A stretch of 64,000 nt of DNA from Takakia lepidozioides (lineage: Eukaryota; Plantae; Bryophyta): NCBI GenBank assembly GCA_030704615.1, contig CM060731.1, forward strand, positions 79,050,001-79,114,000, read 5' to 3'. Position 1 is the first letter of the stretch. Every line of letters starts with the position of its first letter. Below are positions 18,621 through 42,140 of the stretch, piece after piece. Made by a program: the position numbers and the translations under genes. The notes under the pieces are model-generated. The model did no database searches. It had not been told where the DNA came from and saw only the letters and a program-made list of their open reading frames with translations.

Positions 18621-20245
18621 CTATGAGCTTGGCCTCCCTTGTCTTGTTAGCTGCCTCCAGTCATGTCCACTGCCACTATCCCAACACAACCAATCTCCGT
18701 CAGGAACCTTCTCAAGAGGTGGTGTCAAGCATCCCATATGCCAACCCCTTGAGCATCGATCACACACCAGCATGGTGGCTGCCCCTTTGGCAGACTCACA
18801 GAGCATGCACCTCAAACCTGCAGGTACCACTGCCAAGTTTGGGTCAACTCTGCCATCGACATTGGGAAGGTGACATGGCGCACAATTACGCACATGGTCC
18901 TTCCAAGTCATGTCATCCCGACCCTCTAAGATCAGGACCCCTGAGGGCAACACCTCTCGAACCCTCAGAATAACACGCCCTGCAGTAACATCCAGAGTTG
19001 TAGGAGCAGTCTGCTGCAAATAAACATAGTCACTAGGGCTAAACCTCCGAACCCCAGGACGATATCCTCCACCACGTATAGTGGCATACCTCAACGTATC
19101 ACGGTGCTGTGCAATGGCAAGGTTCTCAAAAGCCATGGGCATGACTTTCTTGAACAACTCTGCACGCTGATCACATGCACGTACCCACACGTCCGGATCA
19201 TCAAGGTTAAGGACTTGAGCAATGTCCCTACGAATGGCTGCAGGCAAATCCGGCTCTCGGCCAAAGAGAAGGAAATATGGTGAGAAGGAGGCAAGTGATG
19301 CTTGTTTGCTGAACCTGTAGCCCATGGCTAACCAAGGAACCTGAAGATCCAATCTCCTAGGTGTCCCTTCTGCAAGCCATACTTGCGCAAACCCCTCTTC
19401 ACCGTCTGAACAACTCTCTCTGCTAAGCCATCGGCCTCAGGATGATCTCGAGAAGTGGTGCGGTGGTCTATCAAGGCTTTATCACACAAAGCCTGAAACT
19501 CCCCCAAGAACTCTCTCCCTTGGTCCGTGAGTACCTCAGCTGGAGCACCAAATCGGCTAAGCACACGATCCAAGAATGCATACGCAGCCCCCTCACTAGC
19601 CTTGTCAGGCAATGGAACCAACTCAATCCACTTGGAGAAGTGCTCCACCATCACCAACACATATCTGTGATGGCGCATAGTCAGTGGCAACGGTCCTGCA
19701 AAGTCAAGACTCCACCTGTAGCCCAATCCCATGATTGGTAAAGGATGCAACTGTGGTGTAGGGGCGTTGAATGAAGCACGCACCCTGTCACACACCATGC
19801 ACCTAGCCACGAACTGTTGCACCTTTGTATGCATACCACGCCACCAATACTGCCCATGCAGTAAATTGTGAGTGCGTCGCACTCCAAAATGCCCCAACTC
19901 CTCATGGGCATGCCGCACTAACCGTGCACGCTGTGTGGGGTGAGGCAAAATCCTCACCCGACCATCCTCCCACACTCGAAGTAGGTGTATCCCCTCCCAC
20001 TTGAACCTCTTGGCTCGTTGTAGGATCCGATCTCTCTCCATGGCAGTCACAGTGGCTGCCGTGTCTCCCGTGCGGAGGTAGTCCAACACAGCCGAATCCT
20101 CATGTATATCTCTGGCACCACCTGGCTCATCACTAGCCTCAGGGTCCTCAGACACTCCGTCTACAATCATCCCTGTTGTAGGTCCAACCTGACCTCCCGA
20201 TGCCAAGATACACATAAATGCAGATGCGTGCCATCCCGGCACCAT
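18621..20245 (-). CDS. Integrase (HHCC + DDE) with C-terminal PHD finger, frameshifted
   Basis: HAHEELGHFG..CMVC, WSLDFAGP, VLTDQG, ADGLAERVVQ; CMLCESAKGAATMLVCDRCSRGWHMGCLTPPLEKVPDGDWLC. Confidence 0.92.
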
Positions 20246-20287
20246 CTCCTCGTCCGTCTCACCATGCCACCGAGCTCCTGTGTCATC

Positions 20288-20640
20288 CTACTGGCTCATG
20301 CATGGATTGCGACTCAATCCATCCGCATCCCGATTGACCAAACCTGGTCGATGCACAACCTGAAAGTCATACTCTTGGAGTATGAGTGCCCACCGTGCAA
20401 GCTTCCCCGTAAGCTTGTCTGACTCCATCAACCACTTGAGTGGCTGGTGATCCGTGACAAGGGTGAAAAGATTGCCATATAGATAGCACCTGAAGTGTGC
20501 CACGGCCCACACTGCAGCTAAGCACTCTCCCTCATTTGAGCTGTACTTAGCATCTGCAGCGTTGTTTGAGCGGCTAGCATAAGCCACTACAAACTCTCTT
20601 CCCTCATCATCCACTTATATGAACACCGCTCCAAGCCCCA
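20288..20640 (-). CDS. RNase H of family-B copy 2; its N-terminal DWS motif lies across the nested insertion at ~27608-27630
   Basis: VVAYASRS..YSS.EGECLAAVWAVAHFRCYLYG..FTLVTDHQPL..LARW..ADGLSR; the two flanks rejoin as DWSMVGLGAV. Confidence 0.92.
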
Positions 20641-20641
20641 G

Positions 20642-23600
20642 TGTCGCGCACCTCACTTCGGTAAGCTCCCCTTCAAGTCATAGTTACTCGCTTTGATGCG
20701 CGCGCCTAACTCCCAACCTGGCCGCCCAGGCCAACTTGGAGCTTCGGCTGCTCACCGGGACATAACAGTCCCCCCTTTGCTTCCCTCTAAACCCTCCACC
20801 TAATTGGGACTAGGAGAATTCCCTTTGGTAGATGGCAGTCCAGAACAGCTCCCCACTCTTTGGTCGCTTTCCGGCTCGCTCGCTTACTCACTAGTTTTTG
20901 GTCACCAACGGGCTTGCACCGTTCTCGGGGTTACTACTCCCTATATATACTTCTGTAGCTGTCCGCAGGGGTTCCACAACTAGCCATGCCATTTTATGGC
21001 GAACCACCACGAAAACCCTCGACTCCCGGTGATGAGTCGCGGTGAGTCTTGGCCCGCTCACCACGGCCCCTATGGACCGTGATGAGTCCCAAGACTCCCC
21101 ACGACTCCCACCACGAGGTCTCCGCCTCAGGGTGAGTCCTATGCTACCCCCACTAAGTCCCGCTAAGCTACCACCACCCCTTGTGGAGCCACCCCCACCG
21201 CACCCCGGTGTGCGGGGCTCCACCTAGTGAGCGCCTCCCCCTCCTTGAGTGCCTTGGGCACTCAAGGGTGCTTCAGCTCCCCATACCTATCGCTGCCACT
21301 GCCCCCACCACAGGGGCAGCCCCACTTGTGTCCCGGCCCCCTGCCCTCAAGGCAAAGGGCCGCGACACACACCCCTACCAACAGGGAGTCGATGTCCCCA
21401 TCGACTTGTCCATTTTGTAGAAACGAACATCCAAGTTGTGGCGTCCCATATCAAGGAGTTTGTTTCCGCACCATGGCGTCCCATGGTAAAGAACCAAACC
21501 CCACACTTGACTCTACTCTCCACTAGCTAGTTCGGCCGACTTCCTCCAAGTCCCGGCCAAGGGTGGAGCCTCTCCAGCTCCTCTCAGTGCACTCTTCTTG
21601 GCCTACGTCAAGGCCAAGGAACGATCCTCCCCGAGGATCGAATCGCCTTACTGCAACAACATTGCTTGCGATCGCTCATGATGCCGCTTTTGGCATTACC
21701 TTGAGCAAGGGTTCACCTGGAACCGTCTTTGACTAGGACGATAACCTTGAACCAACCGTTCGCCCCAATCACTACAATTGGGTCCGCCTTGGAATGCTGG
21801 CCTGAGGTACGGGAACACGCCGAAGCCGCATTTCGACTTCGTCCCGAGGCTACACGATTATAGTACGTGAACGGAAGCACGTAGCTTCCGCGTTAGCCCG
21901 CACTACAAGGCAACCCCCTCGGTAGCGCAGTTATAGTACGCGCACGCGCCAGGTGCGCACTAGCACGTGAACTCCTAAAGAAGGCACAAGTTTCCTTGCC
22001 CCTTGGATGGGAGTCACCCGATTTCGGCACTGCGCAAACACACGATTAACCCAATTTACCTCTCCCACTTTTGTAAGCTAGCATGCATTCTACACACTAG
22101 CCAACCACACCATGCATCACCATTCCAAACACAATAGGACGCACAAATTTGGAACCCATTTCCTTTATAACAAATTTTTGTACAATACAAGTTTTTGCAA
22201 TCGGATTCCTGAGCTAGCTAAACCGGGCTAAGCATGCATTTCCTCCCCCACGCTCCAAGGTTGATGTCCCCATCAATGCTTCTTCCGCTTTTGAGGTCGC
22301 CCTTCGAAAGCTGTAACCGCCTCGGATGCGTTTCCCATTTCTGAGGCACGCACCCAAGATGCCTCCACATGATGATAGCCCTTCCATTTGACGAGATACT
22401 ACTCCGTTTCTCGGTTCCTGAACCTCCTCGACTTAAGTATTGCCTCCACCTCGTACTCAGGTTCATTTTCATGATCCAACAGCATAGGTGGCGGACGCAA
22501 CACTTGATGCCGATTCGGACGCGCTTCATCTTTGAAGTAAGGTTTCAAAAGGGAGACATGGAATACTGGGTGCACCTTGCTGTTTGCCGGCAGCTCCAAT
22601 TCATACACATCCTCATTCATAACCTTCCGAATGCGAAAGGGTCCCGCATACGGAGGTACAAACTTTGGACTCACTTCCGGAGGTAGTCGGAAATTCTTGA
22701 TGTTCAACCAGACCTCTGTGCCTGCCTCAAACTTCACTTCCCTCCGCTTCCGATTCGCCTGCCTTTCATACCGTTTCCTAGCTTTGGCAATATTGTAATT
22801 TGCGAGCTTCAACAAACGCTCGCGTTCTTCCAGTACCGCCGCTACTGTCGGTTCCTCAACGTCCTGGGCGGCCCACTTGTCGGCACCAGAGGTGCTTTTC
22901 CATAGACCAATACGAAAGGGGAAACTCCCGTTGCGGAGTGTTCTGTGTTATTATAACAGAACTCTGCCGCGTCTAAGTGTTCCATCCAGTCTGATTGGTC
23001 TGCCGACACGTAATTCCGCAAGAATTGCTTCACTACGGAATTCACTCTTTCCGTTTGGCCGTCCGTCGTAGGTCGGAAGGCGGTGCTCATCTTCAGCCTC
23101 GTCCCCATCTTCTTCCAAAGTGCTCTCCAGAATTTACTCGTAAACTTTGGATCGCGGTCCGAGACAATATCCTTCGGGACTCCATGATGCTTTAAGACGT
23201 GGGCGAAGTAAAGTCACCATATCTCCTGCGCCGTTGCCATCTCCTTGGTGGGGATGAAATGGCCCATTTTACTGAACCTATCTACCACCACCATGATTGC
23301 ATCGAATCCTTTTGACAGCGGCATAGCAGTCATGAAATCCATCGAGACGCTTTCCCAAGTCCTCTCTGGAATCGGCAAGGGTTGTAACAGCCCCGCTTGC
23401 TTTTTGTACTCGCTCCAGTTTTGTTGGCATGTGGTGCATGTCTTGACATACTCCTCTGCCTCATCCCTCAGTTTGGGCCAGAAATACTCTTTCTTCAAGA
23501 GTGCCGCAGTGCGCTTGGCTCCGCCGTGGCCCGCAAGCGGGCTATCATGGCATTCTCTCAAGAGGCTATCTCTGATCCCTCCCTTCGGCACGTAGAGACG

Positions 23601-26600
23601 TTTTTGCTTATACCGGAGCAGTCCATTTTGCAAGTGGAACTGCGATTTAACCCCCATCCTCAAGTCCTGCATCACGGACTTCGCCAGCTCATCCTTCCGG
23701 CAAGCCTTCCGGATCTTCCTTTGGAGCACCGTCTCGCCCTTGTACACTAACAAGAGCTGTGCTTTCTACTTAAAGCATCGGCCACCACATTGTCCCGTCC
23801 CGGTTTGTACTGGATATCCACGTCGAACATTGCCAAAGTATCTTGCCACTAAGTTGTTTTGGGGACAACTTGGCTGCGTGGCAAAATACTTCACCGTGAC
23901 ATTGTCCGTGAACACCTTCACTGGGTTGGAACCAACATAGTGGCGCCAGAGCTCAAGGCAATGCACCACCGCCTTCATCTCTTTTTCGTGCGTCGGCCAC
24001 CGTCGCTCCACTTCATTCAGTTTTCTTACTTTCGTAAGCCACTGGACGTCCATCTTGCATAAGAACACCCCCAATCGCGAAGTCCGATGCATCTGTATGA
24101 ATCTCAAACGGACGATCGAACTCCGGGATTTTCAAGACTGGAGCTTCCGTCATCCGCTGCTTCAATTCAGCAAAAGCTTGGCCACAAAATGTGTTCCATA
24201 CCTAGACTTTGGATTTACACAGAAGGTCCGACAGCGGCCCCGCGATCTTGGCGAAATTTCTCACATACTTCCGGTAATAGGAGGCGAGTCCTAGGAAGGA
24301 TCGCACTCCCGGGACCGAAGTCGGAGGCTCCCAGTCCAAGATCGCCCTCACCTTTCTGTCATCCATTTTGATCCCATCCTGTGTAATCACATGCCCCAGG
24401 AACTCCACTTTTGTGACCCCGAATTCGCACTTTGAAGCTTTGGCATACAGCTTCCCTTCCCGCAATTTTTGGAACACCCTTTTGAGGTGCTCCAGGTGCT
24501 CCTCTTTTGTTTTCGAGTACACCAAGATGTCGTCGATGTACACGATCACAAAGTCATCCAACCACTCCTGGAAAAGGCTGTTCATCAGCATGCTAAATGT
24601 CGCTGGTGCATTGGTGAGCCCAAAAGGCATTACCAAGAACTCATATGAACCATACCTTGTCCTGCACGCGGTCTTCTCCTCATCTCCTTCCGCCACCCGA
24701 ATTTGGTGATAGCCGGAGCGCAAGTCGATCCGGCTGAAATACTTCGCTCCTGCCAACCGATCGAAGAGGTCGTCGATCCTTGGCAAGGGTACCGGTTTTT
24801 GATAGTCACCTTATTCAGAGCCCTGTAATCGACACACATCCGCAGCGTCCCATCCTTCTTGTCTGCAAATAGCACCGGGGCTCCGTAAGGTGACTTACTC
24901 GGCCGGATGTACCCCTTTGACATTAGATCCTTGAGCTGAGTTTTCAGCTCGACCAATTCTCTGTGGCTCAACCGGTAGGGCGCCTTGGTAGGCGGTTCCG
25001 ATCCCGGTATCACCTCAATCTTGTGGTCAACTCCTCTTCGCGGTGGCAAGCCGCTTGGTAAATCCTCTGGCATCACATCCTGGTATTTCTCCAAAATCCC
25101 CTGATCCAATCTGGGCTCGGCTCCCCATCGCCTTCTCCTTTCACTTCTCTAACGTAAAGAAAAAACTGGGGCTCGTGTGCCTCATCCACGGCCCACTCCT
25201 TTGCTGACAGAAGGTTTATTCGCCCTCCCACGGATTTGGGCGTTTCAACACTCGTAAAACCTCGCCACCATTCCCACATGGCAGCGTGACTACTCTCTTG
25301 CGGCCATCTATGACCGCTCCGGATTTGCTCAAAAGGTCATCCCCAAAATGAGATCCACTCCATCGATCTCGCAGATGGTGAAGTTCTCACGTCCCTCCAA
25401 CTCCCCAGTTGAAGAGGAACATCAATCGCCAACCTTGTCGCCAACTGTGGTTCTCCTTTGGCAGAACACACCTCAATAGAGGCCCCCACGTCACTTGTCG
25501 GGAGTCCCAGCTTTTGTGCCGTTGCCGGTGTCATGAAGGAGTGCGACGCTCATGTGTCCACCAACAACGACACATTAGTTCCGGATATTATCCCATCCAC
25601 GAACAATAACTGACTCCCTTTTCGTAAGGCGCCAGTTTCCTTATACAACTCACAAAAAATTTGCCTACCTTGCAAGTCCTGGCGACCACCGCTTCCACCA
25701 AGCGACTGATGGTATCTTCCGACAGCTCCGTGGTCGCCCGAGTCATGTTCAATTGCCGGGGCTTCGTGCACTTCTTGGCCATGTGCCCGGGCTCCCCGCA
25801 ATTGAAACACACTCCATCAAAGGTCGCCTTCTGTCCGCCATAAGCCGCTCCACCGCTTTTCCTTTCGAAGCACCGGGTGCCGCCTTGACGTGTGAAGGCC
25901 CTCCCTTCGATTTCCACGTGCCATTTTCGCCGCGTGGCCTATCCCACTTCTTTTCGGTCGGAAGGAGTCACCTTCCCGCCGAATCTTCTTGTGGTTCAGC
26001 TCCGTACGGCCTTGTCTTTCACCCCTAGGGACATCTGAGAAACATTCAGCCCTCTCAATTGCCTCGTTCAAAGTCTTGGGTGGCTTCTCCTCCAACTTCC
26101 GCCTGGCCCATGGGGCCAGTCCCGCCACAAAGTTGAAGACCATTTCTGGTTCTGCCATGTCCGCGACTTCGAGCAACAGCACATTGAAAGCCTGGACATA
26201 CCCCGAATGTCATCTGTTTGCTTCAAATTCCTCATCTTGTCCCGGGCAAGCCAGGACGCGTTGAGGGGCACAACTGTCTCTTCATCATCAATTCCTTGAA
26301 CCCACTCCAGTTCAAGGTTTCCGGGCTTGGACCTCGGTCGTGAAGGCGTTTCTGCCACCATTGTTGAGCATAGCCCCTCAAATAGGTGGGAGCCACTTCC
26401 ACCCGATCCTCGTCACTCAACTTGGCCGCCCGAAAGTACTGCTCTAGCTCCAAGAGCCAGGTGTTGAGTGCCTTCCGATTTCGGACGCCCTCGAAGGTGC
26501 CGGGTTCCTTAGGCTTCACCTTAAACTTTGCCTTAGTGGAAGTGGCATTAGCCGCCTTCAACACGTCTTTCAACGTCCCGCCAAACTGCGCCAACAACCC

Positions 26601-27607
26601 TTCCCAAAAGGCTGCCGGCATGGGAGGCATCTCTTGGTTTGTCGGAGCTCTCAAGGATTCCTCGGGCTCCGACTCCTCGGATTCCTCCCGCTCTTGGGCG
26701 GCCTCGTTTTCGGAAACATGCATCGCTTCCTCAAACGGCTGCCTTGGTGACACGCCGCCCCCATCGGGCTCACCGGGATCATCATCTTTTGGGCCGTTCC
26801 GCTTTCGCTTCAGCTTGCCCGACCCCATGATGAGGCCCATCCCAAGGACGATCGCGTACTGAACTCTAAGCTCTGATACCAAATGTCGCGCACCTCACTT
26901 CGGTAAGCTCCCCTTCAAGTCATAGTTACTCGCTTTGATGCGCGCGCCTAACTCCCAACCTGGCCGCCCGGGCCAACTTGGAGCTTCGGCTGCTCACCGG
27001 ACATAACGGTCCCCCTTCGCTTCCCTCTAAACCCTCCCTCCACCTATTTGGGACTAGGAGAATCCCTTTGGTAGATGGCAGTCCGGAACAGCTCCCCACT
27101 CTTTGGTCGCTTTCCGGCTCGCTCGCTTACTCACTAGTTTTTGGTCACCAACGGGTTTGCACCGTTCTCGGGGTTACTACTCCTATATATACTTCTGTAG
27201 CTGTCCGCGGGGGTTCCACAACCAGCCATGCCATTTTATGGCGAACCACCACGAAAACCCTCGACTCCCAGTGATGAGTCGCGGTGAGTCTTGGCCCACT
27301 CACCACGGCCCTTATGGACCGTGATGAGTCCCAAGACTCCCCACGACTCCCACCACGAGGTCTCCGCCCCCTGGTGAGTCCTATGCCACCCCCACTAAGT
27401 CCCGCTAAGCTACCACCACCCCTTGTGGAGCCACCCCCACCGCAACCCGGTGTGCGGGGCTCCACCTAGTGAGCGCCTCCGCCTCCTTGAGTGCCTTGGG
27501 CACTCAAGGGTGCTTCAGCCCCCCATACCTATCGCTGCGCTGCCCCCACCACAGGGGCAGCCCCTCATGTGTCCCGACCCCCTGCCTCAAGGCAAAGGGC
27601 CGCGACA
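20642..27607 (-). mobile_element. Full-length chromovirus (family A, copy 1; Galadriel-like by inference) nested in RNase H
   Basis: LTRs 20642-21367 and 26884-27607 (TG...CA); tRNA-Met PBS TGGTATCAGAGC at ~26870-26881; gag, DTG protease, YIDD RT, RNase H, integrase, chromodomain [21 protein letters not shown] imperfect (cccca-g / cccca). Confidence 0.95.
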
Positions 27608-28560
27608 CCCCACCATGCTCCAATCCTATGCAGCTGAAGTGACTCCCCCTGATAGTTCGACTCGGATAGGCGCCGAGGTCAACCTCGCCTTGAGCTCTTG
27701 GAAAGCTCGTTCCTGCTCATCTTCCGCACTACCCTCTCCTGGTCCACCTGGTCAGCTTGGTTAGAGCCTTTGCAATGGGACTAATCCCTTGACAAACCGT
27801 CTATAATAGTTGCCAACCCATGAAGCTCGAACTCGGCTCAGATCCGTGGGGCGTGGAATTGTGCATGGCCTCTACCTTAGTCTACTGTACCCCCATCCTC
27901 CAGGATATATCATTGACCCAGATACTCAATCTGGGTTGTGAAAACTTGCACTCCCCGGATGCACTTCATATGTGCTCTCTCAAGCGCTTCATACCACCTG
28001 AAGGTGTCCTCTCATGCTCCTCCATCGTAACACTGAGATGATGATGTCATCTATGTAGCACCGAGCAAAGTCCACCCCTGCTAGAATCCTATCCATGACT
28101 CTCTGAAACTCTGCAGAAGCATTCTTAAGCCCAAATGGTAAGACCGCCACTGATATAGGCAATCCTTGCCGTGCTCTTGATCCCCAGAATGCCGTCTTCT
28201 GCTTGTCCGCCTCCTTGATTGGCAACTGGTGATATCCGGATCGTAATCCAAAGTGCTAAACGGCTTAGCATGCCCGATGGCAGCAAAGAATCATCCTCTA
28301 GTGTTGGCAGGCATACTTATCGGACTTGGTCTGACGATTTAACAGGCGGTAATCACCGCACATACGTCTCTCCGTCATTGCCATAGACATCCTTCTTGGC
28401 TGGCATCACTGTGGCTGAAGCATACTCTCTCACCAGAGAGCTCCACCAAACTGCCTCCCAGGATCTTGAGTCCTCATCTGAATCAAAGACCTCTCCATGT
28501 CACTGTATCTATAGGGTCTCTGAAAGATTGGCGTCTCAGTGGCCAACTCATACGGATCTC
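27608..28560 (-). pseudogene. Reverse transcriptase of family-B copy 2 (frameshifted)
   Basis: RMCGDYRLLN, SGYHQLPIKEADKQKTAFWG, LPFGLKNASAEFQRVMD, CYIDDIII. Confidence 0.92.
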
Positions 28561-29129
28561 TTGACCACTTCAGTGTCAAGTCTCTTTCAACGAAGGCAAA
28601 CAATTCCTGTAAGCCCTCAGGAACCGCCGTCTACGTCGTCTCTCTCCTCCGGTGACAATGGGTCCAATGTCAGGCTCCCAATGTCCTCCGTAACTGCAAC
28701 TTAAGTCCAGTGGGCTTGAGGTGAGACGCGTCCAGTGGTTGCTATGTTGCAACCTCTTGAGCAGTACTCCCTCCTGCTCATTCAATGACAAGGCGTCATC
28801 CTGCCCCATCATCTCATCCTTGAGAACCTCCTCAACCCGAGAAGAATCCCAACCTCATCCATCACAGCCGCTTGGTCTGCCAACTCCCTCCTGAACCTGA
28901 GCACCTCCTGTGCCATGGATGCATGCCACCCCATGGATGCATGCCCCCCGTGTCCTCACATTCTCGCCCTGCCAACTCCCTCTGTTGAACCTAGAGCACC
29001 TCCACGTGTTGCCATGGATGCATGCACCCCGTGGTACTCACATGCTCGCCCCCACTCATGACCTGTACTGTCTCGGTAGGCAGAGAGGACCATTGGGAAG
29101 TGTACTACGCACTCTGCATTGCTCAGCAG

Positions 29130-29900
29130 AGCCAAGCTGATTTAATCCAGGTCAAAGCAATTGAGATCCATTGCTTGCCCCAACCTTGACGACGTGATGC
29201 CTCAGAAAGAGACGACACCGCGTGGTACAGTGGTAAAACCATTGCCCGCTCAACGCTCGTCAGCATTAGGCTCCACTAACTGCCAATTGAGCATCCCACA
29301 GGAGGCGGTCCACTATCCGGAAAGCATGCGATCCTGGGAATCGAATGAGCAGTGTAGGTAATGCTGCTCGGGGGGGACCCACCTTGTGACACTGCAAAGG
29401 CGAACGGTCATCGTGTCTCACACGCTGAGACTGCATCCCTGTGTCCAGAATGTTATCCACTGTGAGATGTGCATGGCACTGCACCCCATCAAATGCACGC
29501 TTGAGCAGTGCGGGTGGCATCAAGTTAGTCCACCATAGCCGTGGACGATGAGCCGGACCCCACTGTAGCTGCATCTAGCAACAATGTGACCCAAGCCGCT
29601 GATGAATGCCCTTGGCAGGGCCAACCTGCCCCTACCAGATCAATGGAGCCACCCCTCCAATCCTGTGCCCCCAGCAACGAAATGTCTGCTGGCAAGGCCT
29701 GCTGATATCCACGAATTGCAGACAACCGACAACAAACTCAGGGACCTCTGCATCACCAACTGAGCAACATGGCGAATTGAAACGCGTCGTGCAGTCTCAT
29801 CCCTCTCCACATACAGGTAACGCCGAACTCCGTACACCTGCCTGTAATACAAACAGCCAATCCGGTGTTGATCCTGCCAAACAAGTCCAGAAGACAAATG
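29130..29900 (-). pseudogene. C5-cytosine DNA methyltransferase domain between protease and RT (frameshifted; motif VI apparently deleted)
   Basis: Read across frames: motif I LLDLFG(R)INTGL (~29895-29860), YLYVERD, motif IV IDLVGAGWPCQGHS (~29645-29605), motif VIII LLDAATVG..AHRPRLWWTNL, motif IX EPNADER-ERAM(G)F, motif X SEASRRQ-LGQAMDLNC (~29205-29158). Confidence 0.88.
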
Positions 29901-30339
29901 CTTCATCCGGATACTGCCACACAATAGGTGTGGTGTCCAATGGAGACAATTGAGGTGGTCCTGGTGCAATCCCCGCACTCTCCTCCTCTCCTGACGGTAC
30001 AAAAGCCTCCACCCAGGCTTGTTGCACCCGTCGATCAGCATCCCGCTGCAAAATCCTTTCTCGTGCCCCACAATGGGGGGTCGAGCAACCATGGTAGGCA
30101 CCTCGCGCCATACCATACATGTCCATCCTGCTCTCCCGGAGGTGGTACATCACTCTGAATGAGCATGCCCTCAAGCAACTCTCTAGGCCAACTCACTTGC
30201 CCCTGCCCCCGCTGTGAATGCTGCTAGTGTCGGCATCTTGCCTCGCTGGGCAACCGCAACTCTCCTCCTATGAACGTCACAGGGAGCTGCACAACGCCGG
30301 CCCTCCCCTGACTGCCATGCAGGCCTATAGGAAGCTGAC

Positions 30340-30830
30340 TCCTCCCAAAAATCCAGGGTGAAGCCCATGGGTACAACACTGCCCCACCAACCAGGACATC
30401 CTATGAGACCGCGTTGTCCAATGGCCTTGGCTCGCATCACTGAGCCATCTGTAGGGCTCCTCCCAAAAATCCCTCCTCCCAAAAATCCAGGTGAAGCCCA
30501 TGGTGTAACAACACTGCCCCACCAACCAGGACATCCTATGAGACCGCTCTGTCACAATGGCCTGGCTACGCATCCCTGAGCCATCTGTAGGGTGATCCGG
30601 CCGTAGTCTGATAGCCAACTCACGCCGTGTCATGCCCCGAGCGTGCTCGATCCTCCCAGAGACGTCTGAATCTGGAAAGGACAAGGCTCCATATCCGCCT
30701 CCTGTGAGGCCCAACCTGGCAATAGCAGCTTCTGGCCCAGCATCAATGGCTGAGCTCCCGATCCAACAAGACCGCCAGTGGCCGGTACCCTCTTGCCTGC
30801 CGGTCCACTCAAACAGAAATGCCATCCTGG
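30340..30830 (-). pseudogene. Aspartic protease of family-B copy 2, with a ~130-bp tandem duplication
   Basis: LLD/SGAQPLMLG across a frameshift; block 'aaaaatccagg..gagccatctgtaggg' at ~30347 and ~30481. Confidence 0.7.
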
Positions 30831-31199
30831 TTGTCTAACATGACAACTCCAGGTGTCACCATGGCGCGCTCAATGGCTGGCCTAGCTGGCAGCTCCATCA
30901 ACCTGGCAGGTGCAGTTGCCATTGGGCTCCGCTGTGGCAGTCTTGACCCTCAAATCCGAGGATCCCTCGGCACTACACCTCCCCGTATCTCCGCAGAAGA
31001 TGAAGTAACCTAACCTCCCACTCTCACAGAGTGTAGCTGCCAGCCTGAACACCTCAGCTGCTCTTACACCCCCTGGCGTCACAATCATGGTAGCCGAGAA
31101 CAATGGAGCCTGGCACACAGATGTGGCCGCTCCTAGCAGCACACTACCTGCCGTAGCCTTGGCAACACTAGGTAGTGTGCTACCCGTGTAGCTCTCCCC

Positions 31200-32330
31200 A
31201 ATGGCATAGTAACCTTTGCATTGGTAACAGTCGGGCGAGAACTAGGTGCCATGGATGGCGTCGACACTGTCCCGCCAATGTGAATAACTGAGGAAGCCTA
31301 GCCTGACGGCTTGCCTCCCCACGCTGTGGATCCACTCCACCTCTGCACCTCGTGGCTCAGGAACTCGTGCTGCTCCTCGAGTCACGGCTGCAGCAGACTC
31401 CACCTGCACTAGTGGTAGTGCTGCTCCACACATGAATCCCATGCCTCCCATATCTCCTCCCTCAGTAGTAGGATGTGGACCATCCGGCCTTAGAGCCAGT
31501 ACCACCTGAGCTGTCGCCATGGCAGCGGCCTCTGCTCTAGCTGCTGAAGCCGGTTGGCCATGCCTTGGTCACACCCTGATCTCCGCGTCCTTGGCCATGT
31601 TGAGCTTGCCCTTGGCCTGCACCTCGTGCTGGCCACCTCGTCCTCTCTGGGATGCTCCACCTCGCCCCCGGCCACCATTTTTCCCTTGAACTGGCCTGGC
31701 GCAACTCAGGATGCAAACCATAAACACTGGCCTCTCCATGCCCGTGTTTGCCACAATGCCCACACTGCAACTATCCCATTGCTACTTGCTGAAGCTGCCG
31801 GTGCAGCGGTAGTTGTAGCCACTGCCCTCGTGGCTCTAGTGCCCCTAGTGATGGAGACATATCGGGTGACCAGTACATCCTCCACTCCTCGATCTCAACC
31901 TCATGTGCCCCCGCCTGAACTCATGGTAATCATCCATAGGCAGCCCCTCCTCAAGTGCCGAAACAACCCCTTCCATGCCATGAAAGGCGTAAATAGTTGT
32001 GGATTGCGCATTTGCTGCAAATCACACACCACTATCAAACTCTTGGATAAATCATCCAACTCGATGGTGCCACTGCCCCAGAGTACCTTCGTGGCCCCTT
32101 GGTAGCTCCATACATCTCCTCCATTGTGTCCCACAACAATGGCAAAGAAACACTTGCACCGCCGGTAGGAGTCCTCCTGATTCACAATCCGAATCAGAAC
32201 CTTCCGTAGAAGACACGGAGGTGAAGGTGGCCTAAACCGCACACCTCGTCTCGTGTACCCACTAGTATCGCTAGTGCTCAAACCGTCACTGTCCCAGCAA
32301 CTAGTGGCACCCTCCGTGTTGACACTCAAC
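31200..32330 (-). pseudogene. Gag remnant of family-B copy 2 with zinc knuckle
   Basis: QCGHCGKHGHGEAS knuckle at ~31730-31770; position upstream of the protease. Confidence 0.65.
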
Positions 32331-34559
32331 CGGTCATGAACATGTCCCTAACCCTAACCCCCTCTCCACAAGGTAACCGGGTAGAGAACCTGTTGCGGCT
32401 TATGGTTTGGAATACTAAGTTCCTAACATAGCCTACACCTGTACCTGCATCCACCGCAAGCACTCCTATGGTTGGCTGGTCATCACCTCCAACCTCACCA
32501 CAGGAGAAACAATGATGGTCTGGCTGGTCATCACCCCAGCCTCACCATCGACAACATGCTCTAGGACTGGCCGGTGATCAATCCAGACCAATCACCTATA
32601 AAAACAAGCGCCCACCACAAAAATACATGGCGCACAGTCAAGCATGCAGGTATGGAGGGGATCCAAACAAAGAAATCAGAACGACAACTCCCCCCACAAA
32701 ACAACTCCACGGTGTTGCTCCTGCAAGGACACCCCAGCCCACACCGGACTGACTCTTGCCTCACCTACGGAAAAGTCTTGGGCTAATGAGAGGGGGGAAA
32801 CTACGAGGAAGAGAAGCTAAAGCAATGCCTAATCCCAGCATGCCCTCATCCCAACACTCTTCCTCTCCTCTCTTCCCTCACTTGCATGACCATGGATATC
32901 ATGAAGATCTCCTCAACCACCAAAACAGCCCTCCACGATCTTCAAAATTCGGCCTCAAGACCACAAACATCTAGTCCCTTAGTGTCGCGCACCTCACTTC
33001 GGTAAACTCCCCTTCAAGTCATAGTTACCGCTTTGATGCGCGCGCCTGACTCCCAACCTGGCCGCCGGCCAACTTGGATTTCGGCTGCTCACCGGGACAT
33101 AACGGTCCCCTTCGCTTCCTCTAAAACCCTCCACCTATTTGGGACTAGGAGAATTCCCTTTGGTAGATGGCAGTCCGGAACAGCTCCCCACTCTTTGGTC
33201 GCTTTCCGGCTCGCACGATTACTCACTAGTTTTTGGTCACCAACGGGCTTGCACCGTTCTCGGGTTACTACTCCCTATATATACTTCTGTAGCTGTCCGC
33301 GGGGGTTTCATAACCAGCCATGCCATTTTATGGCGAACCACCACGAAAACCCTCGACTCCCGGTGGTGAGTCGCGGTGAGTCTTGGCCCACTCACCGCGG
33401 CCCCAATGGACCGTGATGAGTCCCAAGACTCCCCACGACTCCCACCTCGAGGTCTTCACCCCATGGTGAGTCCTATGCCACCCCCACTAAGTCCCACTAA
33501 GCTACCACCACCCCTTGTGGGACCCCTCCACCGCAACCCGTGTGCGGGGCTCCACCTAGTGAGCGCCTCCGCCTCCTTGAGTGCCTTGGGCACTCAAGGG
33601 TGCTTCAGCCCCCATACCTATCGCCGCCATCGCTGCCGCTGCCCCACCACAGGGGCAGCCCTAATGTGTCCCGATGTGTCCCGACCCCCTGCCCTCAAGG
33701 CAAAGGGCCGCGACACACACCCCTACCAACAGGGAGTCGATGTCCTCATCGACTTGTCCATTTTGTAGAAACGAACATCCAAGTTGTGGCGTCCCACATC
33801 AAGGAGTTTGTTTCCGTACCATGGCGTCCCATGGCAAAGAACCAAACCCCACACTTGACTCCACTCTCCACTAGCTAGTTCGGCCGACTTCCTCCAAGTC
33901 CGGCCAAGGGTGGAGCCTCTCCAGCTCCTCCCAGTGCACTCTTCTTGGCCTACTTCAAGGCCAAGGAACGATCCTCCCCGAGGATCGAATCGCCTTACTG
34001 CAACAACATTGCTTGCGATCGCTCATGATGCCGCTTTTGGCATCACCTTGAGCAAGGGTTCACCTGGAACCCTCTTTGACTAGGAAGATAACCTTGAACC
34101 AACCGTGCGCCCCAATCACTACAATTGGGTCCGCCTTGGAATGCTGGCCTGAGGTACAGGAACACGCCGAAGCCGCACTACGACTTCGTCCCGAGGCTAC
34201 ACGATTATAGTACGTGAACGGAAGCACGTAGCTTCCGCGTTAGCCCGCACTACAAGGCAACCCCCTCGGTAGCGCAGTTATAGTACGCGCACGCGCCAGG
34301 TGCGCACTAGCACTTGAACTCCCAATAAGGCGCAAGTTTCCTTGCCCCTTGGATGGGAGTCACCCGATTTCGGCACTGCGCAAACACACGATTAACCAAT
34401 TTACCTCTCCCACTTTTGTAAGCTAGCATGCATTCTACACACTAGCCAACCACACCATGCATCACCATTTCAAACACAATAGGACGCACAATATTTGGAA
34501 CCCATTTCCTTTATAACAAATTTTTGTACAATACAAGTTTTTGCAATCGGATTCCTGAG

Positions 34560-37500
34560 CTAGCTAAACCGGGCTAAGCATGCATTTCCTCCCCCACGCT
34601 CCAAGGTTGATGTCCCCATCAACGTTTCTTCTTCGCTTTTGAGGTCGCCCTTCGAACGCTGCAACTGCCTCGGATGCGTTTCCCATTTCTGAGGCACGCA
34701 CCCAAGATGCCTCCACAAGATGATAGCCCTTCCATTTGACGAGATACTCCGTTTCTCGGTTCTTGAACCTCCTCGACTTAAGTATTGCCTCCACCTCGTA
34801 CTCGGTTCATTTTCATGATCCAACAGCATAGGTGGCGGACGCAACACTTGCTGCCGATTCGGACGTGCTTCATCTTTGAAGTAAGGCTTCAAAAGGGAGA
34901 CATGGAATACTGGGTGCACCTTGCTGTTTGCCGGCAGCTCCAATTCATACACATCCTCATTCATAACCCTCCGAATGCGAAAGGGACCCGCATACGGAGG
35001 TACGAACTTCGGACTCACTTCCGGAGGTAGTCGAAAATTCTTGATGTTCAACCAGACCTCTGTGCCTGCCTCAAACTTCACTTCCCTCCGCTTCCGATTC
35101 GCCTGCCTTTCATACCGTTTCCTAGCTTTGGCAATGTTGTACTTTGCGAGCTTCAACAAACGCTCGCGTTCTTCCAGCACCGCCGCTACTGCCGGTTCCT
35201 CAACGTCCTGGGCGGCCCAACTTGTCGGCACCAGAGGTGCTTTTCCATAGACCAACACAAAAGGGGAAACTCCCGTCGCGGAGTGTTCTGTGTTATTATA
35301 ACAGAACTCTGCCGCGTCTAAGTGTTCCATCCAGTCTGATTGGTCTGCCGACACGTAATTCCGCAAGAATTGCTTCACTACGGAATTCACTCTTTCCGTT
35401 TGGCCGTCCGTCGTAGGTCGGAAGGCGGTGCTCATCTTCAGCCTCGTCCCCATCTTCTTCCAAAGTGCTCTCCAAAATTTACTCGTAAACTTTGGTCGCG
35501 GTCCGAGACAATATCCTTCGGGACTCCATGATGCTTTAAGACGTGGGCGAAGTAAAGTCGCCCTGTCTCCTGCGCCGTTGCCGTCTCCTTGGTGGGGATG
35601 AAATGGGCCATTTTACTGAACCTATCTACCACCACCATGATTGCATCGAATCCTTTTGACAGCGGCATAGCAGTCATGAAATCCATCGAGACGCTTTCCC
35701 AAGTCCCCTCTGGAATCGGCAAGGGTTGTAACAGCCCCGCTTGCTTTTTGTACTCGCTCCGGTTTTGTTGGCATGTGGTGCATGTCTTGACATACTCCTC
35801 TGCCTCCTCCCTCAGTTTGGGCCAGAAATACTCTTTCTTCAAGAGTGCCGCAGTGCGCTTGGCTCCGCCGTGGCCCGCAAGCAGGCTATCATGGCATTCT
35901 CTCAAGAGGCTATCTCTGATCCCTCCCTTTGGCACATAGAGACGTTTTTGCTTATACCGGAGCAGTCCTTTTGCAAGTGGAACTGCGATTTAACCCCCAT
36001 TCTCAAGTCCTGCATCACGCGCTTTGCCAGCTCATCCTTCCGGCAAGCCTTCCGGATCTTCCTTTGGAGCGCCGTCTCGCCCTTGTACACCAACAAGAGC
36101 TGCTGCTTTCTACTTAAAGCATCGGCCACCACATTGTCCCGTCCCGGTTTGTACTGGATATCCACGTCGAACACTGCCAAAGTATCTTGCCACCTAAGTT
36201 GTTTTGGGGACAACTTGGGCTGCGTGGCAAAATACTTCACCGTGACATTGTCCGTGAACACCTTCACTGGGTTGGAACCAACATAGTGGCGCCAGAGTTC
36301 AAGGCAATGCACCACCGCCTTCATCTCTTTTTCGTGCGTCGGCCACCGTCGCTCCACTTCATTCAGTTTCTTACTTTCGTAAGCCACTGGACGTCCATCT
36401 TGCATAAGTACACCCCCAATCGCGAAGTCCGATGCATCTGTATGAATCTCAAACGGACGATCGAACTCCGGGATTTTCAAGACTGGAGCTTCCGTCATCC
36501 GCTGCTTCAATTCAGCAAAAGCTTGGCCACAAAATGTGTTCCATACCCAGACTTTGGATTTACACAGAAGGTCCGACAGCGGCCCCGCGATCTTGGCGAA
36601 ATTTCTCACATACTTCCGGTAATAGGAGGCGAGTCCTAGGAAGGATCGCACTCCCGGGACCGAAGTCGGAGGCTCCCAGTCCAAGATCGCCCTCACCTTT
36701 CTGTCATCCATTTTGATCCCATCCTGTGTAATCACATGCCCCAGGAACTCCACTTTTGTGACCCCGAATTCGCACTTTGAAGCTTTGGCATACAGCTTCC
36801 CTTCCCGCAATTTTTGGAACACCCTTTTGAGGTGCTCCAGGTGCTCCTCCTTTGTTTTCGAGTACACCAAGATGTCGTCGATGTACACGATCACAAAGTC
36901 ATCCAACCACTCCTGGAAAAGGCTGTTCATCAGCGTGCTAAATGTCGCTGGTGCATTGGTGAGCCCAAAAGGCATCACCAAGAACTCATATGAACCATAC
37001 CTTGTCCTGCACGCGGTCTTCTCCTCATCTCCTTCCGCCACCCGAATTTGGTGATAGCCGGAGCGCAAGTCGATCCGGCTGAAATACTTCGCTCCTGCCA
37101 ACCGATCGAAGAGGTCGTCGATCCTTGGCAAAGGGTACCGGTTTTTGATAGTCACCTTATTCAAAGCCCTGTAATCGACACACATCCGCAGCGTCCCATC
37201 CTTCTTGTCTGCGAATAGCACCGGGGCTCCGTAAGGTGACTTACTCGGCCGGATGTACCCCTTTGACATTAGATCCTTGAGCTGAGTCTTCAGCTCGACC
37301 AACTCTCTGTGGCTCAACCGGTAGGGCGCCTTGGCAGGCGGTTCCGATCCCGGTATCACCTCAATCTTGTGGTCAACTCCTCTTCGCGGTGGCAAGCCGC
37401 TTGGTAAATCCTCCGGCATCACATCCTGGTATTTCTCCAAAATCCCTTTGATCCAATCTGGGCTCGGCTCCCCATCGCCTTCTCCTTTCACTTCTCTAAT

Positions 37501-37680
37501 GTAAAGCAAAAACTGGGACTCGTGTGCCTCCTCCACGGCCCACTCCTTTGCTGACAGAAGGTTTATTCGCCCTCCCACGGATTTGGGCGTTTCCGACACT
37601 CGTAAAACTTCGCCACCATTCCCACATGGCAGCGTGACTACTCTCTTGCGGCCATCTATGACCGCTCCGGATTTGCTCAA
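34560..37680 (-). CDS. Pol (RT, RNase H, integrase, chromodomain) of family-A copy 2, split by a few frameshifts
   Basis: ORFs 35902-37680 (YIDD, TDASD), 35438-35935, 34560-35453 ([12 protein letters not shown]) and 34564-34794 (chromodomain). Confidence 0.93.
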
Positions 37681-39180
37681 AAGGTCATCCCCAAAATGAG
37701 ATCCACTCCATCGATCTCGCAGATAGTGAAGTTCTCACGTCCCTCCCAACTCCCCAGTTGAAGAGGAACATCAAACGCCAACCTTGTCGCCAACTGAGGT
37801 TCTCCTTTGGCAGAGCGCACCTCAATAGAGGCCCCCACGTCACTTGTCGGGAGTCCCAACTTTCGCGCCGCCGCCAGGCGTCATGAAGGAGTGCGACGCT
37901 CCTGTGTCCACCAACAACGACACGTTAGTTCCGGATATTATCCCATCCACGAACAATAACTGACTCCCTTTACGCAGGGCGCCAGTTTCCTGATACAACT
38001 CACAAGAATAGTTGCCTACCTTGCAAGTCCTGGCGACCACCGCTTCCACCAAGCGACTGATGGTATCTTCCGACAGCTCCGTGGTCGCCCGAGTCATGTT
38101 CAATTGCCGGGGCTTCGTGCACTTCTTGGCCATGTGCCCGGGCTCCCCGCAATTGAAACACACTCCATCAAAGGTCGCCTTCTGTCCGCCATAAGCCGCT
38201 CCACCCGCTTTTCCTTTCGAAGCACCGGGTGCCGCCTTGACGTGTGAAGGCCCTCCCTTCGATTTCCACGTGCCATTTTCGCCGCGTGGCCTATCCCACT
38301 TCTTTTCCGGTCGGAGGAGTCACCTTCCCGCCGGGTCTTCTTGTGGTTCAGCTCCGTACGGCCTTGTCTCTCACCCCTAGGGACATCCGAGAAACATTCA
38401 GCTCTCTCAATTGCCTCGTTCAAAGTCTTGGGTGGCTTCTCCTCCAACTTCCGCCTAGCCCATGGGGCCAGTCCCGCCACAAAGTTGAAGACCATTTCTG
38501 GTTCTGCCATGTCCGCGACTTCGAGCAACAGCACATTGAAAGCCTGGACATACCCCCGAATGTCATCTGTTTGCTTCAAATTCCTCATCTTGTCCCGGGC
38601 AAGCCAGGATGCGTTGAGGGGCACAAACTGTCTCTTCATCAATTCCTTGAACTCACTCCAGTTCAAGGTTTCCGGGCTTGGGCCTCGGTCGTGAAGGCGT
38701 TTCTGCCACCATTGTTGAGCATAGCCCCTCAAATAGGTGGGAGCCACTTCCACCCGATCCTCGTCACTCAACTTGGCCGCCCGGAAGTACTGCTCTAGCT
38801 CCAGGAGCCAGGTGTTGAGTGCCTTCCGGTTTCGAACGCCCTCAAAGGTGCCGGGTTCCTTAGGCTTCACCTTAAACTTTGCCTTAGTGGAAGTGGCATT
38901 AGCCGTCTTCAACACGTCTTTCAACGCCCCGCCAAACTGCGCCAACAACCCTTCCCAAAAGGCTGCTGGCATGGGAGGCATCTCTTGGTTTGTCGGAGCT
39001 CTCGAGGATTCCTCGGGCTCCGACTCCTCGGATTCCTCCCGCTCTTGAGCGGCCTCGTTTTCGGAAACATTCATCGCTTCCTCAAATGGCCGCCTCGGTG
39101 ACACGTCGCCCCCATCGGGCTCACCGGGATCATCATCTTTTGGGCCGTTCCGCTTTCGCTTCGGCTTGCCCGACCCCATG
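37677..39180 (-). CDS. Gag and protease of family-A copy 2
   Basis: Retrotransposon Gag ([20 protein letters not shown]), [14 protein letters not shown] knuckle, [11 protein letters not shown]. Confidence 0.9.
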
Positions 39181-39961
39181 ATGAGGCCGATCCCAAGGAC
39201 GATCGCGTACTGAACTCTAAGCTCTGATACCAATGTCGCGCACCTCACTTCGGTAAACTCCCCTTCAAGTCATAGTTAACCGCTTTGATGCGCGCGCCTG
39301 ACTCCCAACCTGGCCGCCGGGCCAACTTGGAGTTTCGGCTACTCACCGGGACATAACGGTCCCCTTCGCTTCCTCTAAAACCCTCCACCTATTTGGGACT
39401 AGGAGAATTCCCTTTGGTAGATGGCAGTCCGGAACAGCTCCCCACTCTTTGGTCGCTTTCCGGCTCGCACGATTACTCACTAGTTTTTGGTCACCAACGG
39501 GCTTGCACCGTTCTCGGGGTTACTACTCCCTATATATACTTCTGTAGCTGTCCGCGGGGGTTTCATAACCAGCCATGCCATTTTATGGCGAACCACCACG
39601 AAAACCCTCGACTCCCGGTGGTGAGTCGCGGTGAGTCTTGGCCCACTCACCGCGGCCCCAATGGACCGTGATGAGTCCCAAGACTCCCCACGACTCCCAC
39701 CTCGAGGTCTTCACCCCATGGTGAGTCCTATGCCACCCCCACTAAGTCCCACTAAGCTACCACCACCCCTTGTGGAGCCACCTCCACCGCAACCCGGTGT
39801 GCGGGGCTCCACCTAGTGAGCGCCTCCGCCTCCTTGAGTGCCTTGGGCACTCAAGGGTGCTTCAGCCCCCCATACCTATCGCCGCCGCTGCCCCCCACCA
39901 CAGGGCAGCCCCTCATGTGTCCCGACCCCCTGCCCTCAAGGCAAAGGGCCGCGACACTTAG

Positions 39962-42140
39962 GCAGTCCACCAGTGCCTCCACGAGTCAGCACAGGCCGTC
40001 CATAGGTCAACACGGGCCACCACAGACCAGCACAGGCCCACACAACTCACTGGTCACAGCCGTCACAGTCCCACAGGCCACTGGGCACAGCCTGTCACAG
40101 CCCCTCATAGCCATCACAGCCTGTCACAGTCCATCACAGCCCCACAGGCCACAGGTCACAGCCCGCCACAGCCTGTCACAGCCCCTCACAGCCCGTCACG
40201 CTCGCCACAGCCCCTCACAGCCCCAAAGGCCTCAGGCACGGCCTGACACAGCCCCTCACAGCCCGTCACAGCCCCAAAGGCCTCAGGCACGGCTTGTCAC
40301 AGCCCCTCACAGCCCCAAAGGCCACGGGCACAGCCTGTCACAGCCCCTCACAGCCCGTCACAGCCCCACAGGCCACTAGGCACAGCCTGTCACAACCCCG
40401 CACAGCCCGTCACAGGCCCACAGGCCACTGGGCACAGCCTGTCACAGCCCCGCACAGCCCGTCACAGGCCCGCAGGCCACTAAGCACAGCCTGTCACAGC
40501 CCCTCACAGCCCCTCACAGCTCGCCACAACCCCTCACAGCCCCAAAGGCCATGGGCACAGCCTGTCACAGCCCCTCACAGCCCGTCACAGCCCCACAAGC
40601 CTCAGGCACGGCCTGACACAGCCCCTCACAGCCCGTCACAGCCCCAAAGGCCTCAGGCACGGCCTGTCACAGCCCCTCACAGCCCGTCACAGCCCCAAAG
40701 GCCTCAGGCACGGCCTGTCACAGCCCCTCATAGCCCATCACAGCCCTAAAGGCCACCGGCACAGCCCCTCACAGCCCATCACAGCCCCCAAGGCCACCGG
40801 CGTAGCCCGTCACAAGCCCTCACAGCCCGTCACGACCCCGAAGGCCACCGGCACAGGCCCTCACAGCCCTCACAGCCCGTCACAGCCCCGAAGGCCACCG
40901 GCACAGCCCCTCGCAGCCCGGCACAGCCCTTAAGGCCACCGGCGCAGCCCGGCACACAGCCCCTCACAGCCCCAAAGGCCTCAGGCACGGCCTGACACAG
41001 CCCCTCACAGCCCGTCACAGCCCCAAAGGCCTCAGGCACGGCCTGTCACAGCCCTCACAGCCCCAAAGGCCACGGGCACAGCCTGTCACCCCCACAGGCC
41101 AATGGGCACAGCCTGTCACAGCCCCGCACAGCCCGTCACAGGCCCACAGGCCACTGGGCACAGCCTGTCACAGCCCCGCACAGCCCGTCACAGCCCACAG
41201 GCCACTGGGCACAGCCTGTCACAGCCCCTCATAGCCCATCACAGCTCGCCACAGCCCCTCACAGCCCCAAGGCCACGGCACAGCCTGTCACAGCCCGTCA
41301 CAGCCCGTCACAGCCCCACAGGCCTCAGGCACGGCCTGACACAGCCCTCACAGCCCGTCACAGCCCCAAAGGCCTCAGGCACGGCCTGTCACAGCCCCTC
41401 ACAGCCCGTCACAGCCCCAAGGCCTCAGGCACGGCCTGTCACAGCCTCTCACAGCCCATCACAGCCCTAAGGCCACGGGCACAGCCCCCAAAAGGCCACC
41501 GGCACAGCCCCTCACAGCCCATCACAGCCCCCAAGGCCACCGGCGTAGCCCGTCACAGGCCCTCACAGCCCGTCACGACCCCGAAGGCCACCGGCACAGG
41601 CCTTCACAGGCCCTCACAGCCCGTCACAGCCCCGAAGGCCACCGGCGCAGCCCGGCACAGCCCGTCACAGCCCTTAAGGCCACCGGCGCAGCCCGGCACA
41701 GCCCCTCACAGCCCCAAAGGCCTCAGGCACGGCGTGACACAGCCCCTCACAGCCCATCACAGCCCCAAAGGCCTCAAGCACGGCAGGTCACAGCCCGTCA
41801 CAGCCCGTCACAGCCCCAAAGGCCTCAGGCACGGCCTGTCACAGCCCCTCACAGCCCGTCACAGCCCCAAAGGCCTAAGGCACGGCCTATCACATCCCCT
41901 CACAGCCCATCACAGCTCCAAAGGCCATGGGCACAGCCTGTCATAGCCCCTCACAGCCCCTCACAGCCCCACAAGCCACTGGGCACAGCCCACAGCCCCA
42001 CAGGCCACTGGGCACAGCCTGGCACAGCCCGTCACAGCCCCACAGGCCACTGGGCACAGCCTGTCACAGTCCATCACAGCCCCAAAGGCCTCAGGCACGG
42101 CCTGTCACAGGCCCTCACAGGCCGTCACAGCCCCATCCAT
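39962..42140. repeat. GC-rich satellite built on a 10-bp 'tcacagcccc/tcacagcccg' unit with a ~750-bp higher-order duplication
   Basis: Continuous cacagccc variants; the blocks starting at ~40217 and ~40966 are collinear. Confidence 0.95.

Follow-up and report, generated by a model that had tools for sequence, protein, structure and literature searches.

A broken Ty3/gypsy copy in Takakia lepidozioides carries a DNMT3-type methyltransferase domain that intact relatives probably package with Gag

Introduction

What is a C5 DNA methyltransferase (DNMT) doing inside the polyprotein of a moss retrotransposon? The question is raised by a 64,000-nucleotide stretch of the Takakia lepidozioides genome (GCA_030704615.1, contig CM060731.1, positions 79,050,001 to 79,114,000; hereafter the window), in which an original prediction, made from the letters alone, placed such a domain between the protease and the reverse transcriptase (RT) of an element. 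In plants, DNMT cargo has so far been reported only from an alga. The case is KnitGypsy-Dnmt3 of Klebsormidium nitens, whose Pol ORF contains the DNMT; the main text of de Mendoza et al. (2018, PMC5890265) describes this element as acquired within the K. nitens lineage, and the 96-genome survey presented there includes Physcomitrella and Selaginella and no liverwort, Sphagnum or fern. Later texts, in their accessible parts, speak of 'streptophytes (Gypsy-DNMT3)' with land plants unnamed (bioRxiv 10.64898/2026.05.21.726589) or likewise refer to 'streptophytes' only (PMC12344493), and PMC6338049 bases a hypothesis on the statement that land plants such as tracheophytes have no methylase-encoding transposons. 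For Phygy and Selgy, the non-chromoviruses of REXdb, the accessible text of PMC6317226 mentions neither a PHD finger nor a methylase. The name 'KnitGypsy' occurs in one paper only, and the literature searched contains no report of the present family in land plants; subscription papers, Repbase, figures and supplements could already list bryophyte copies. The role of retrotransposon DNMTs has been open since 2018, partly because their hosts are hard to manipulate.

Results

A frameshifted methyltransferase domain with an internal gap

The DNMT3-type domain lies at 29130-29900 on the minus strand, frameshifted and with about 60 codons, including motif VI, missing at about 29597. Six-frame reading located motif I (DLFG, 29887-29876), motif IV (GWPCQG, 29626-29609, Cys codon 29617-29615), motif VIII (AHRPRLWWTN, 29553-29524), motif IX (ERAM, 29251-29240) and motif X (RRQ, 29194-29186; LGQAMD, 29183-29166), in the canonical order I-IV-VIII-IX-X on the pol strand, as originally predicted, and scattered over three frames. 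This order is not a product of chance, since the single-frame piece 29266-29574 retrieved four longer proteins (E 9e-35 to 3e-15), two of the four match PF00145 (P0003, E 4e-9; P0004, E 1e-4), and tblastn of the retrieved relatives onto the window mapped them back in the correct order (E 1e-11 to 1e-38). The proposed PF00145 search thus succeeded with relatives and failed with the window's own fragments, the three ORFs over the DNMT region matching no Pfam family, PF00145 included.

Residues 980-1055 of one relative (P0011) map onto just 44 window bases (29597-29553), indicating that about 60 codons between motifs IV and VIII are missing, ENV (motif VI) among them, which bears out the predicted loss of the ENV region. 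In run X4, 37 contigs depart from the window sequence at 29598 and continue into other sequence, indicating that other family copies hold the part missing here; an alignment of the window DNMT with the naturally open copy L032 contained 71 gaps and was too gappy to place the deletion ends. The gap is seen in the window copy only and may be a natural deletion or an assembly artefact. Comparison with contigs of short-read runs revealed 244 indel places in 27600-33000 against 36 in 17300-20700, at the 3' end; because the element's terminal repeats mark a young insertion (see below), we infer that most frameshifts in the window middle are assembly noise. As assembled, the window copy cannot yield an active enzyme.

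The domain belongs to a Ty3/gypsy element with split ends

The element carrying the domain runs from 43987 to 17720 on the minus strand and measures about 12.3 kb once two nested chromovirus-type copies are left out; all features given here lie on that strand. It opens with repeat A1 (43671-43987, 316 bp), which starts with TGTC, is 98.4% identical to 18228-17913 and is preceded by an AGTT target duplication. A predicted primer-binding site directly follows A1 (43653-43669), without the tRNA-type TGG start, and is perfectly complementary to a predicted 17-nt self-primer inside A1 (43825-43841), a match reached by 0 of 2000 shuffles. The long leader (39958-43652) is continuous across the insertion of an unrelated chromovirus-type Ty3 copy (32981-39957), as judged from the 5-bp duplication around that copy. 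About 2.2 kb of the leader (40000-42200) is an array of 51-bp units made of 10-bp subunits, and the leaders of relatives measure only about 1.15 kb.

The frameshifted capsid region of gag (31270-32124) was placed by tblastn to residues 1-87 and 436-480 of P0011, whose residues 1-260 resemble Retrotrans_gag clusters (score 0.95). It is followed by an aspartic protease region (30280-30930) that reads VLLD and SGAQPLMLG on the two sides of a frameshift near 30763 and whose relatives match Asp_protease_2 or gag-asp_proteas; a local duplication within it (30320-30650) is either natural or made by the assembly. Downstream of the DNMT lies the RT (27608-28710; PF00078, E 1.6e-9; residues 686-1009 of the Marchantia protein P0014), where ORF2 starts in relatives. 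A second nested chromovirus-type Ty3 copy (20640-27608) separates the RT from the RNase H (20288-20640; PF17917, E 3e-27), which precedes a DDE integrase with HHCC, core and C-terminal parts (18950-20110; PF17921, E 8e-16; PF00665, E 5e-14) and a C-terminal PHD finger (18684-18821 in ORF 18621-19436; PF00628, E 1.7e-9). P0014 aligns with 28549-27608 and resumes at 20647, bridging the nested copy and thereby uniting RT, RNase H, integrase and PHD in one element.

Behind a polypurine tract the element closes with repeat B1 (18230-18422, ending GACA), which is joined through GACA-GT-TGTC to repeat A2 (17913-18227), and with repeat B2 (17720-17912; 97.4% to B1), which ends in GACA and is followed by the second AGTT. 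The element thus has A at its start and B-GT-A-B at its close, between TGTC/GACA termini with AGTT on both flanks. A1 and A2 differ by 1.3% and B1 and B2 by 2.6%, which marks the insertion as young. The LTR pairs of the nested copies differ by 7 and 11 gaps, against 1 and 0 for the A and B pairs, and by substitution distances of 3.1% and 0.7%, against 1.3% and 2.6%; the relative age drawn from the nested pairs is therefore half supported. The gag-PR-RT-RH-IN order, the DDE integrase, the polypurine tract and the target duplication are those of Ty3/gypsy elements, but the twin LTRs of that group are replaced by the layout A-coding-B-A-B. An assignment to DIRS, Ngaro or PAT elements was rejected, as the integrase is of the rve type rather than a tyrosine recombinase and a 4-bp target duplication is present.

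The rest of the window is likewise packed with mobile elements. Another, diverged family copy survives as a 3' remnant at 9759-11518 (minus strand; 79% DNA identity over IN-PHD); it has the same B/A junction (GACA-GC-TGTC), and its 5' side is cut by another repeat at about 11529-12079. The chromovirus-type Ty3 copies at 20640-27608, 32981-39957 and 52901-58176 (minus strand), two of which lie inside the DNMT element, are 95-96% identical; the 5-bp duplication is clear for one of these two, and all three have kept their CpG (observed/expected 0.85) and are CWG-poor. A decayed LINE (RVT_1, zf-RVT) occupies 6961-9159 (minus strand), and the regions 47990-50700 and 13917-14606 (both minus strand), with ORFs of 564 and 213 amino acids that lack a Pfam hit and an ORF with a weak SWIM finger, are probably DNA-transposon remnants. 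Decayed PPR gene remnants lie at 15082-17400 (plus strand) and 60855-61540 (minus strand) (PF01535; PF13041 at 15295-15759) and are partly repeated in inverted orientation; we take their repeats to be of the PLS type, of which ferns, lycophytes and hornworts have enlarged sets. As the window's sole clue to host lineage they make a seed-free land plant likely and look fern-like.

The domain is a family-wide feature in land plants

A profile search yielded 57 longer proteins, the named sources being Marchantia polymorpha, Calypogeia fissa, Sphagnum fallax and S. troendelagicum, and a search with the IN-PHD ORF yielded 360 proteins with 77-80% identity to liverwort entries; the representative protein library contained 1065 proteins at E<=0.001. 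No Klebsormidium-named sequence was found among the protein hits. In relatives named Marchantia, Calypogeia and Sphagnum the DNMT follows the protease, confirming the predicted position between protease and RT and extending DNMT retrotransposons to land plants as the original prediction had proposed. Among the metagenome loci, the best 80 of 211 confirmed stretches, all 80 matched the DNMT probe and 62 spanned it, counts biased by the inclusion of the DNMT in the query, and the 32 mapped loci of at least 9 kb show the order gag-PR-DNMT-RT-RH-IN-PHD as far as each reaches. Contigs of four runs, from at most two samples, covered all 30 bins from RT to gag, DNMT bins included; in run X1, 27,010 of 2,790,647 contig records aligned to 5.4 kb with every bin covered, a figure for abundance and not for copy number. 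The segment is hence present in relatives, loci and run contigs alike, instead of being confined to one copy, and a DNMT3-type domain is almost certainly a family-wide feature of this retrotransposon. Full-length ORF1 proteins of M. polymorpha are on record as BBN08134.1, BBN20516.1, BBN10775.1 and BBN10840.1, annotated only as "hypothetical protein".

In a quick tree, from which near-duplicates above 85% had been removed beforehand and in which the window row fills 27% of the columns, the window piece groups with Calypogeia, Marchantia and Sphagnum (SH-aLRT 98), as the sister of these liverwort and Sphagnum sequences. A second layout, RT-RH-DNMT-IN-PHD, also with a PHD finger, characterises a large sister group (P0047, P0049, P0079, P0088, P0099, P0120 and others). 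In the DNMT tree, built without host DNMT3, DRM or DNMT1 sequences, this group forms its own side (47 rows, support 99), suggesting that the domain moved once within the polyprotein.

The domain is DNMT3-like

The original prediction had likened motifs VIII-X to the DNMT3/DRM type. Against PDB sequences, the open copy L032 found DNMT3A/B first (E 6e-10), ahead of DRM (1e-3) and bacterial enzymes (at least 7e-3), and a PDB profile search likewise put DNMT3A/B first. A model of L032 from a 44-row alignment (pLDDT 94.5; a single-sequence fold with pLDDT 34 was set aside) gave DNMT3A as the top Foldseek match (E 7.5e-19, TM 0.72/0.82 over 326 columns), and this model of an intact relative can be overlaid on DNMT3A/B from end to end. 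DRM identity was rejected on these E values and on the canonical motif order, which lacks the circular permutation, leaving the DNMT3 half of the earlier proposal: by closest sequence and modelled fold the domain is DNMT3-like.

Relatives score 20-49 bits against PF00145 (cut-off 22 bits), and 18 of 24 match at E<=0.001, one of them below the cut-off. The C5 methyltransferase motifs I, IV (PC), VI (ENV), VIII (RxR), IX and X occur in order in the family, VI being absent from the window copy, and the catalytic motifs are well represented in the 122 domain-spanning proteins (PC in 105, EN in 117, RxR in 110). The metagenome copies are mostly decayed, with the DNMT frame open in 3 of 62 loci and a strict motif-IV pattern in 33 of 62. 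Pairwise dN/dS, from pairs that are not independent and with ratios biased by dS binning, was 0.62 for the DNMT, 0.83 for the Gag-PR linker, 0.39 for RT and 0.59 for integrase, pointing to selection on the DNMT that is weaker than on RT and close to that on integrase.

The methyltransferase closes ORF1 in land-plant relatives

A stop codon precedes the RT in 46 of 47 loci, about 99 codons past motif X and in frame with the RT, and is mostly followed by CAA CCC ATG. The Marchantia proteins terminate 97 amino acids after motif X, as does P0001, the closest relative of the window copy, and a separate RT-IN-PHD protein of 1035 amino acids (P0365) is on record. The stop, the protein ends and this separate protein together indicate that the DNMT rides on Gag-PR, making ORF1 Gag-PR-DNMT; in the distant relatives P0038, P0039, P0111 and P0155 the DNMT is fused to RT, and the window copy contains too much noise for the ORF1 stop itself to be visible. 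Of the family properties suggested for checking, ENV is kept in relatives, and an open PR-DNMT-RT frame is absent from the land-plant clade. The idea that the element pairs a methylation writer with a PHD reader stands insofar as both are encoded by the same element; in relatives they are encoded by separate ORFs and would be cleaved from one another.

Repeat ends and a proposed self-primed, circular-cDNA route

Complete B-A-B 3' ends were found in seven loci representing six insertions, and among the six insertions with both ends the 4-bp duplication is exact in four and has one mismatch in two. B begins with TG after the polypurine tract, and the last letters of A, ahead of the primer site, are CA, so that B+A resembles one ordinary LTR and the A2/B2 arrangement an LTR-LTR joint; the real termini derive from the near-palindrome GACA-NN-TGTC at the B/A border, minus two bases. 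The 17 nt after A1 pair perfectly inside A, and relatives have other letters in the same place, about 30 nt past a TATA-like word; a shuffle test of the self-complementarity was passed in 8 of 20 loci, in one of them at a second site. The simplest reading would be self-priming, a circular cDNA and cutting at the internal palindrome. The mirror product A-B-A-coding-B predicted by a circle model occurred in 0 of the 20 loci with a 5' end (17 insertions), and we hold circle-based integration to be a tentative proposal, with somewhat less than an even chance.

Fourteen loci end in a short form, A-coding-B, and seven in the complete long form; the short form could stem from a circle with a single LTR or from recombination between B repeats at a later time. 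Complete short-form insertions with 4-bp duplications were observed in L014 (3596-13482), L017 (8523-17162), L020 (2265-12055) and L030 (2507-11240). The two forms differ little in decay (1.12 stops per 100 aa in seven long-form loci and 1.33 in 12 short-form loci).

PHD finger and methylation footprint

The nearest structures to the PHD finger are those of CHD4, PHF12, KMT2D, BAZ2A, KDM5B (PHD1), PHF21A, ATXR5, AIRE and UHRF1; the fingers of CHD4, BAZ2A, KDM5B PHD1, PHF21A, ATXR5, AIRE and UHRF1 are readers of unmodified H3 tails. In 112 of 124 family PHD fingers GWH or GYH precedes the His, with Gly at the position of the cage Trp of ING-type readers. The DNMT element has a CpG observed/expected ratio of 0.49 and CWG ratios of 1.08-1.33, and three nested elements of equal GC have 0.85-0.86 and 0.75-0.85. 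As a methylation footprint of the element this depletion is weak, because it is unspecific: the LINE (0.42) and the DNA transposon (0.43; CWG 1.04) of the window are equally CpG-poor. No RNA data set was found to contain the DNMT stretch. Two presumed-RNA runs contributed 20 and 24 contigs over the IN-PHD end; the majority of these continue into unlike sequence, and they were not counted as expression. PHD fingers as such are already known in retroelements, according to the accessible parts of PMC6673714 and PMC9940879.

Discussion

The window holds a broken Ty3/gypsy copy with a DNMT3 domain, and we consider it likely that intact members of the family package the enzyme with Gag, and predict that it methylates the element's own cDNA. 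By closing ORF1, the DNMT would be produced at the level of Gag and be present in the particle in which the cDNA arises; there it could methylate CG sites of the new copy de novo, so that the copy would arrive pre-silenced or shielded. Animal DNMT3 reads unmethylated H3K4 through its ADD domain; here an integrase PHD finger without the Trp of H3K4me3 readers might direct the element to chromatin in which H3K4 is unmethylated. As in Tf1, replication would be self-primed, giving an LTR of B+A, and the integrase would cut circular cDNA at the intra-LTR palindrome to leave A-coding-B-A-B. The mechanism in full, with an active enzyme acting on its own cDNA, seems to us moderately probable. A still wider proposal, that an ancient retrotransposon lineage found in seed-free land plants and extending to vascular ones loads active DNMT3 at the Gag level and integrates from palindrome-cut circular cDNA, is doubtful at present; if true, this replication route would be undescribed for DDE-integrase retroelements, and the transposon enzyme of an abundant family could shape the host methylome.

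An active DNMT might instead enter the nucleus and work on the host chromosome, be it the insertion site, its surroundings or rival elements. Conserved catalytic motifs and a chromatin reader on the same element would suit such a role, and the abundance of the family (the 27,010 records of run X1 on 5.4 kb) makes spill-over onto host DNA plausible; yet DNMT and PHD, being on different ORFs, would be separated and could not act as one writer-reader protein, and placement in ORF1 favours the particle. We therefore regard action on the host chromosome as unlikely. Only a slim probability attaches to the domain being kept as a DNA/RNA-binding or structural particle module, or as a decoy for silencing factors, with catalysis minor: its dN/dS of 0.62 exceeds that of RT or gag and, as the main text of PMC5890265 reports, the algal relative showed no activity in yeast, but PC, EN and RxR are retained by 105, 117 and 110 of the 122 diverse proteins, across two domain layouts.

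The noise of the region (the 244 against 36 indel places) and the failure of the window pieces to match PF00145 could also raise the suspicion of a one-off captured fragment of a host DNMT3 or DRM gene, or of an assembly chimera. This was rejected, and we give it next to no probability, since the domain has the same position in three named genera and in long mapped loci, is covered by contigs of independent short-read runs, and has neither introns nor the DUF3444 that host plant DNMT3 carries (accessible text of PMC6453930). The relatives found here contradict the printed absence of such elements from land plants, and their presence in the genetic model Marchantia polymorpha makes activity, sequence context and target testable. 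The ORF1 proteins can moreover inflate DNMT gene counts in bryophyte annotations, and programs that search for twin LTRs would probably miss the split ends, a possible reason for the lack of earlier reports on the family.

Several known systems share parts of this design. Human DNMT3A and DNMT3B (PDB 6f57, 6u8p) have the fold in common over the whole domain, the motif order and the catalytic residues; identity is about 20%, the retrotransposon domain is extended by longer inserts behind motif II and within the target-recognition region, and it lacks PWWP and ADD. In Tf1 and Tcn1 the primer site is likewise complementary to the element's own LTR (accessible text of PMC6317226), and the foamy-virus integrase, which cuts a palindrome at the 2-LTR circle junction, offers a precedent for the proposed cut (accessible text of PMC1180852); in these systems, however, the palindrome is found where two LTRs meet and the inserted element retains its twin LTRs, whereas the present palindrome is internal to the LTR and the inserted element has a permuted structure. 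The EpiLTRs of Cymbomonas and Euglena are also LTR elements with a DNMT and a chromatin reader, but combine a DNMT4-related enzyme with DAM and a chromodomain where the land-plant element has a DNMT3-type enzyme and a PHD finger (bioRxiv 10.64898/2026.05.21.726589, accessible text). SymbioDIRS-Dnmt3 resembles the present element in having a Dnmt3-type domain in a retroelement and A-coding-B-A-B repeats, and its enzyme methylates CG de novo in yeast (PMC5890265, main text); it uses a tyrosine recombinase, in contrast to the DDE integrase and target duplication of the land-plant element.

Closest is KnitGypsy-Dnmt3 itself, to which the A-coding-B-A-B layout ties the element: both have Gypsy domains, an intronless, non-permuted Dnmt3-type domain and these DIRS-like repeats (PMC5890265, legends of Figs. 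4c and 1e). For the KnitGypsy domain no methylation was obtained in yeast, a result its authors call inconclusive; the word 'PHD' occurs 0 times in the main text of that paper, and its accessible parts describe no self-priming, internal palindrome or 4-bp duplication for the algal element. The present element differs from it in that its hosts are land plants, that the DNMT ends ORF1 in its land-plant relatives (some distant relatives having it fused to RT) and that its integrase ends in a PHD finger. The family is most likely the land-plant branch of an already known kind of element.
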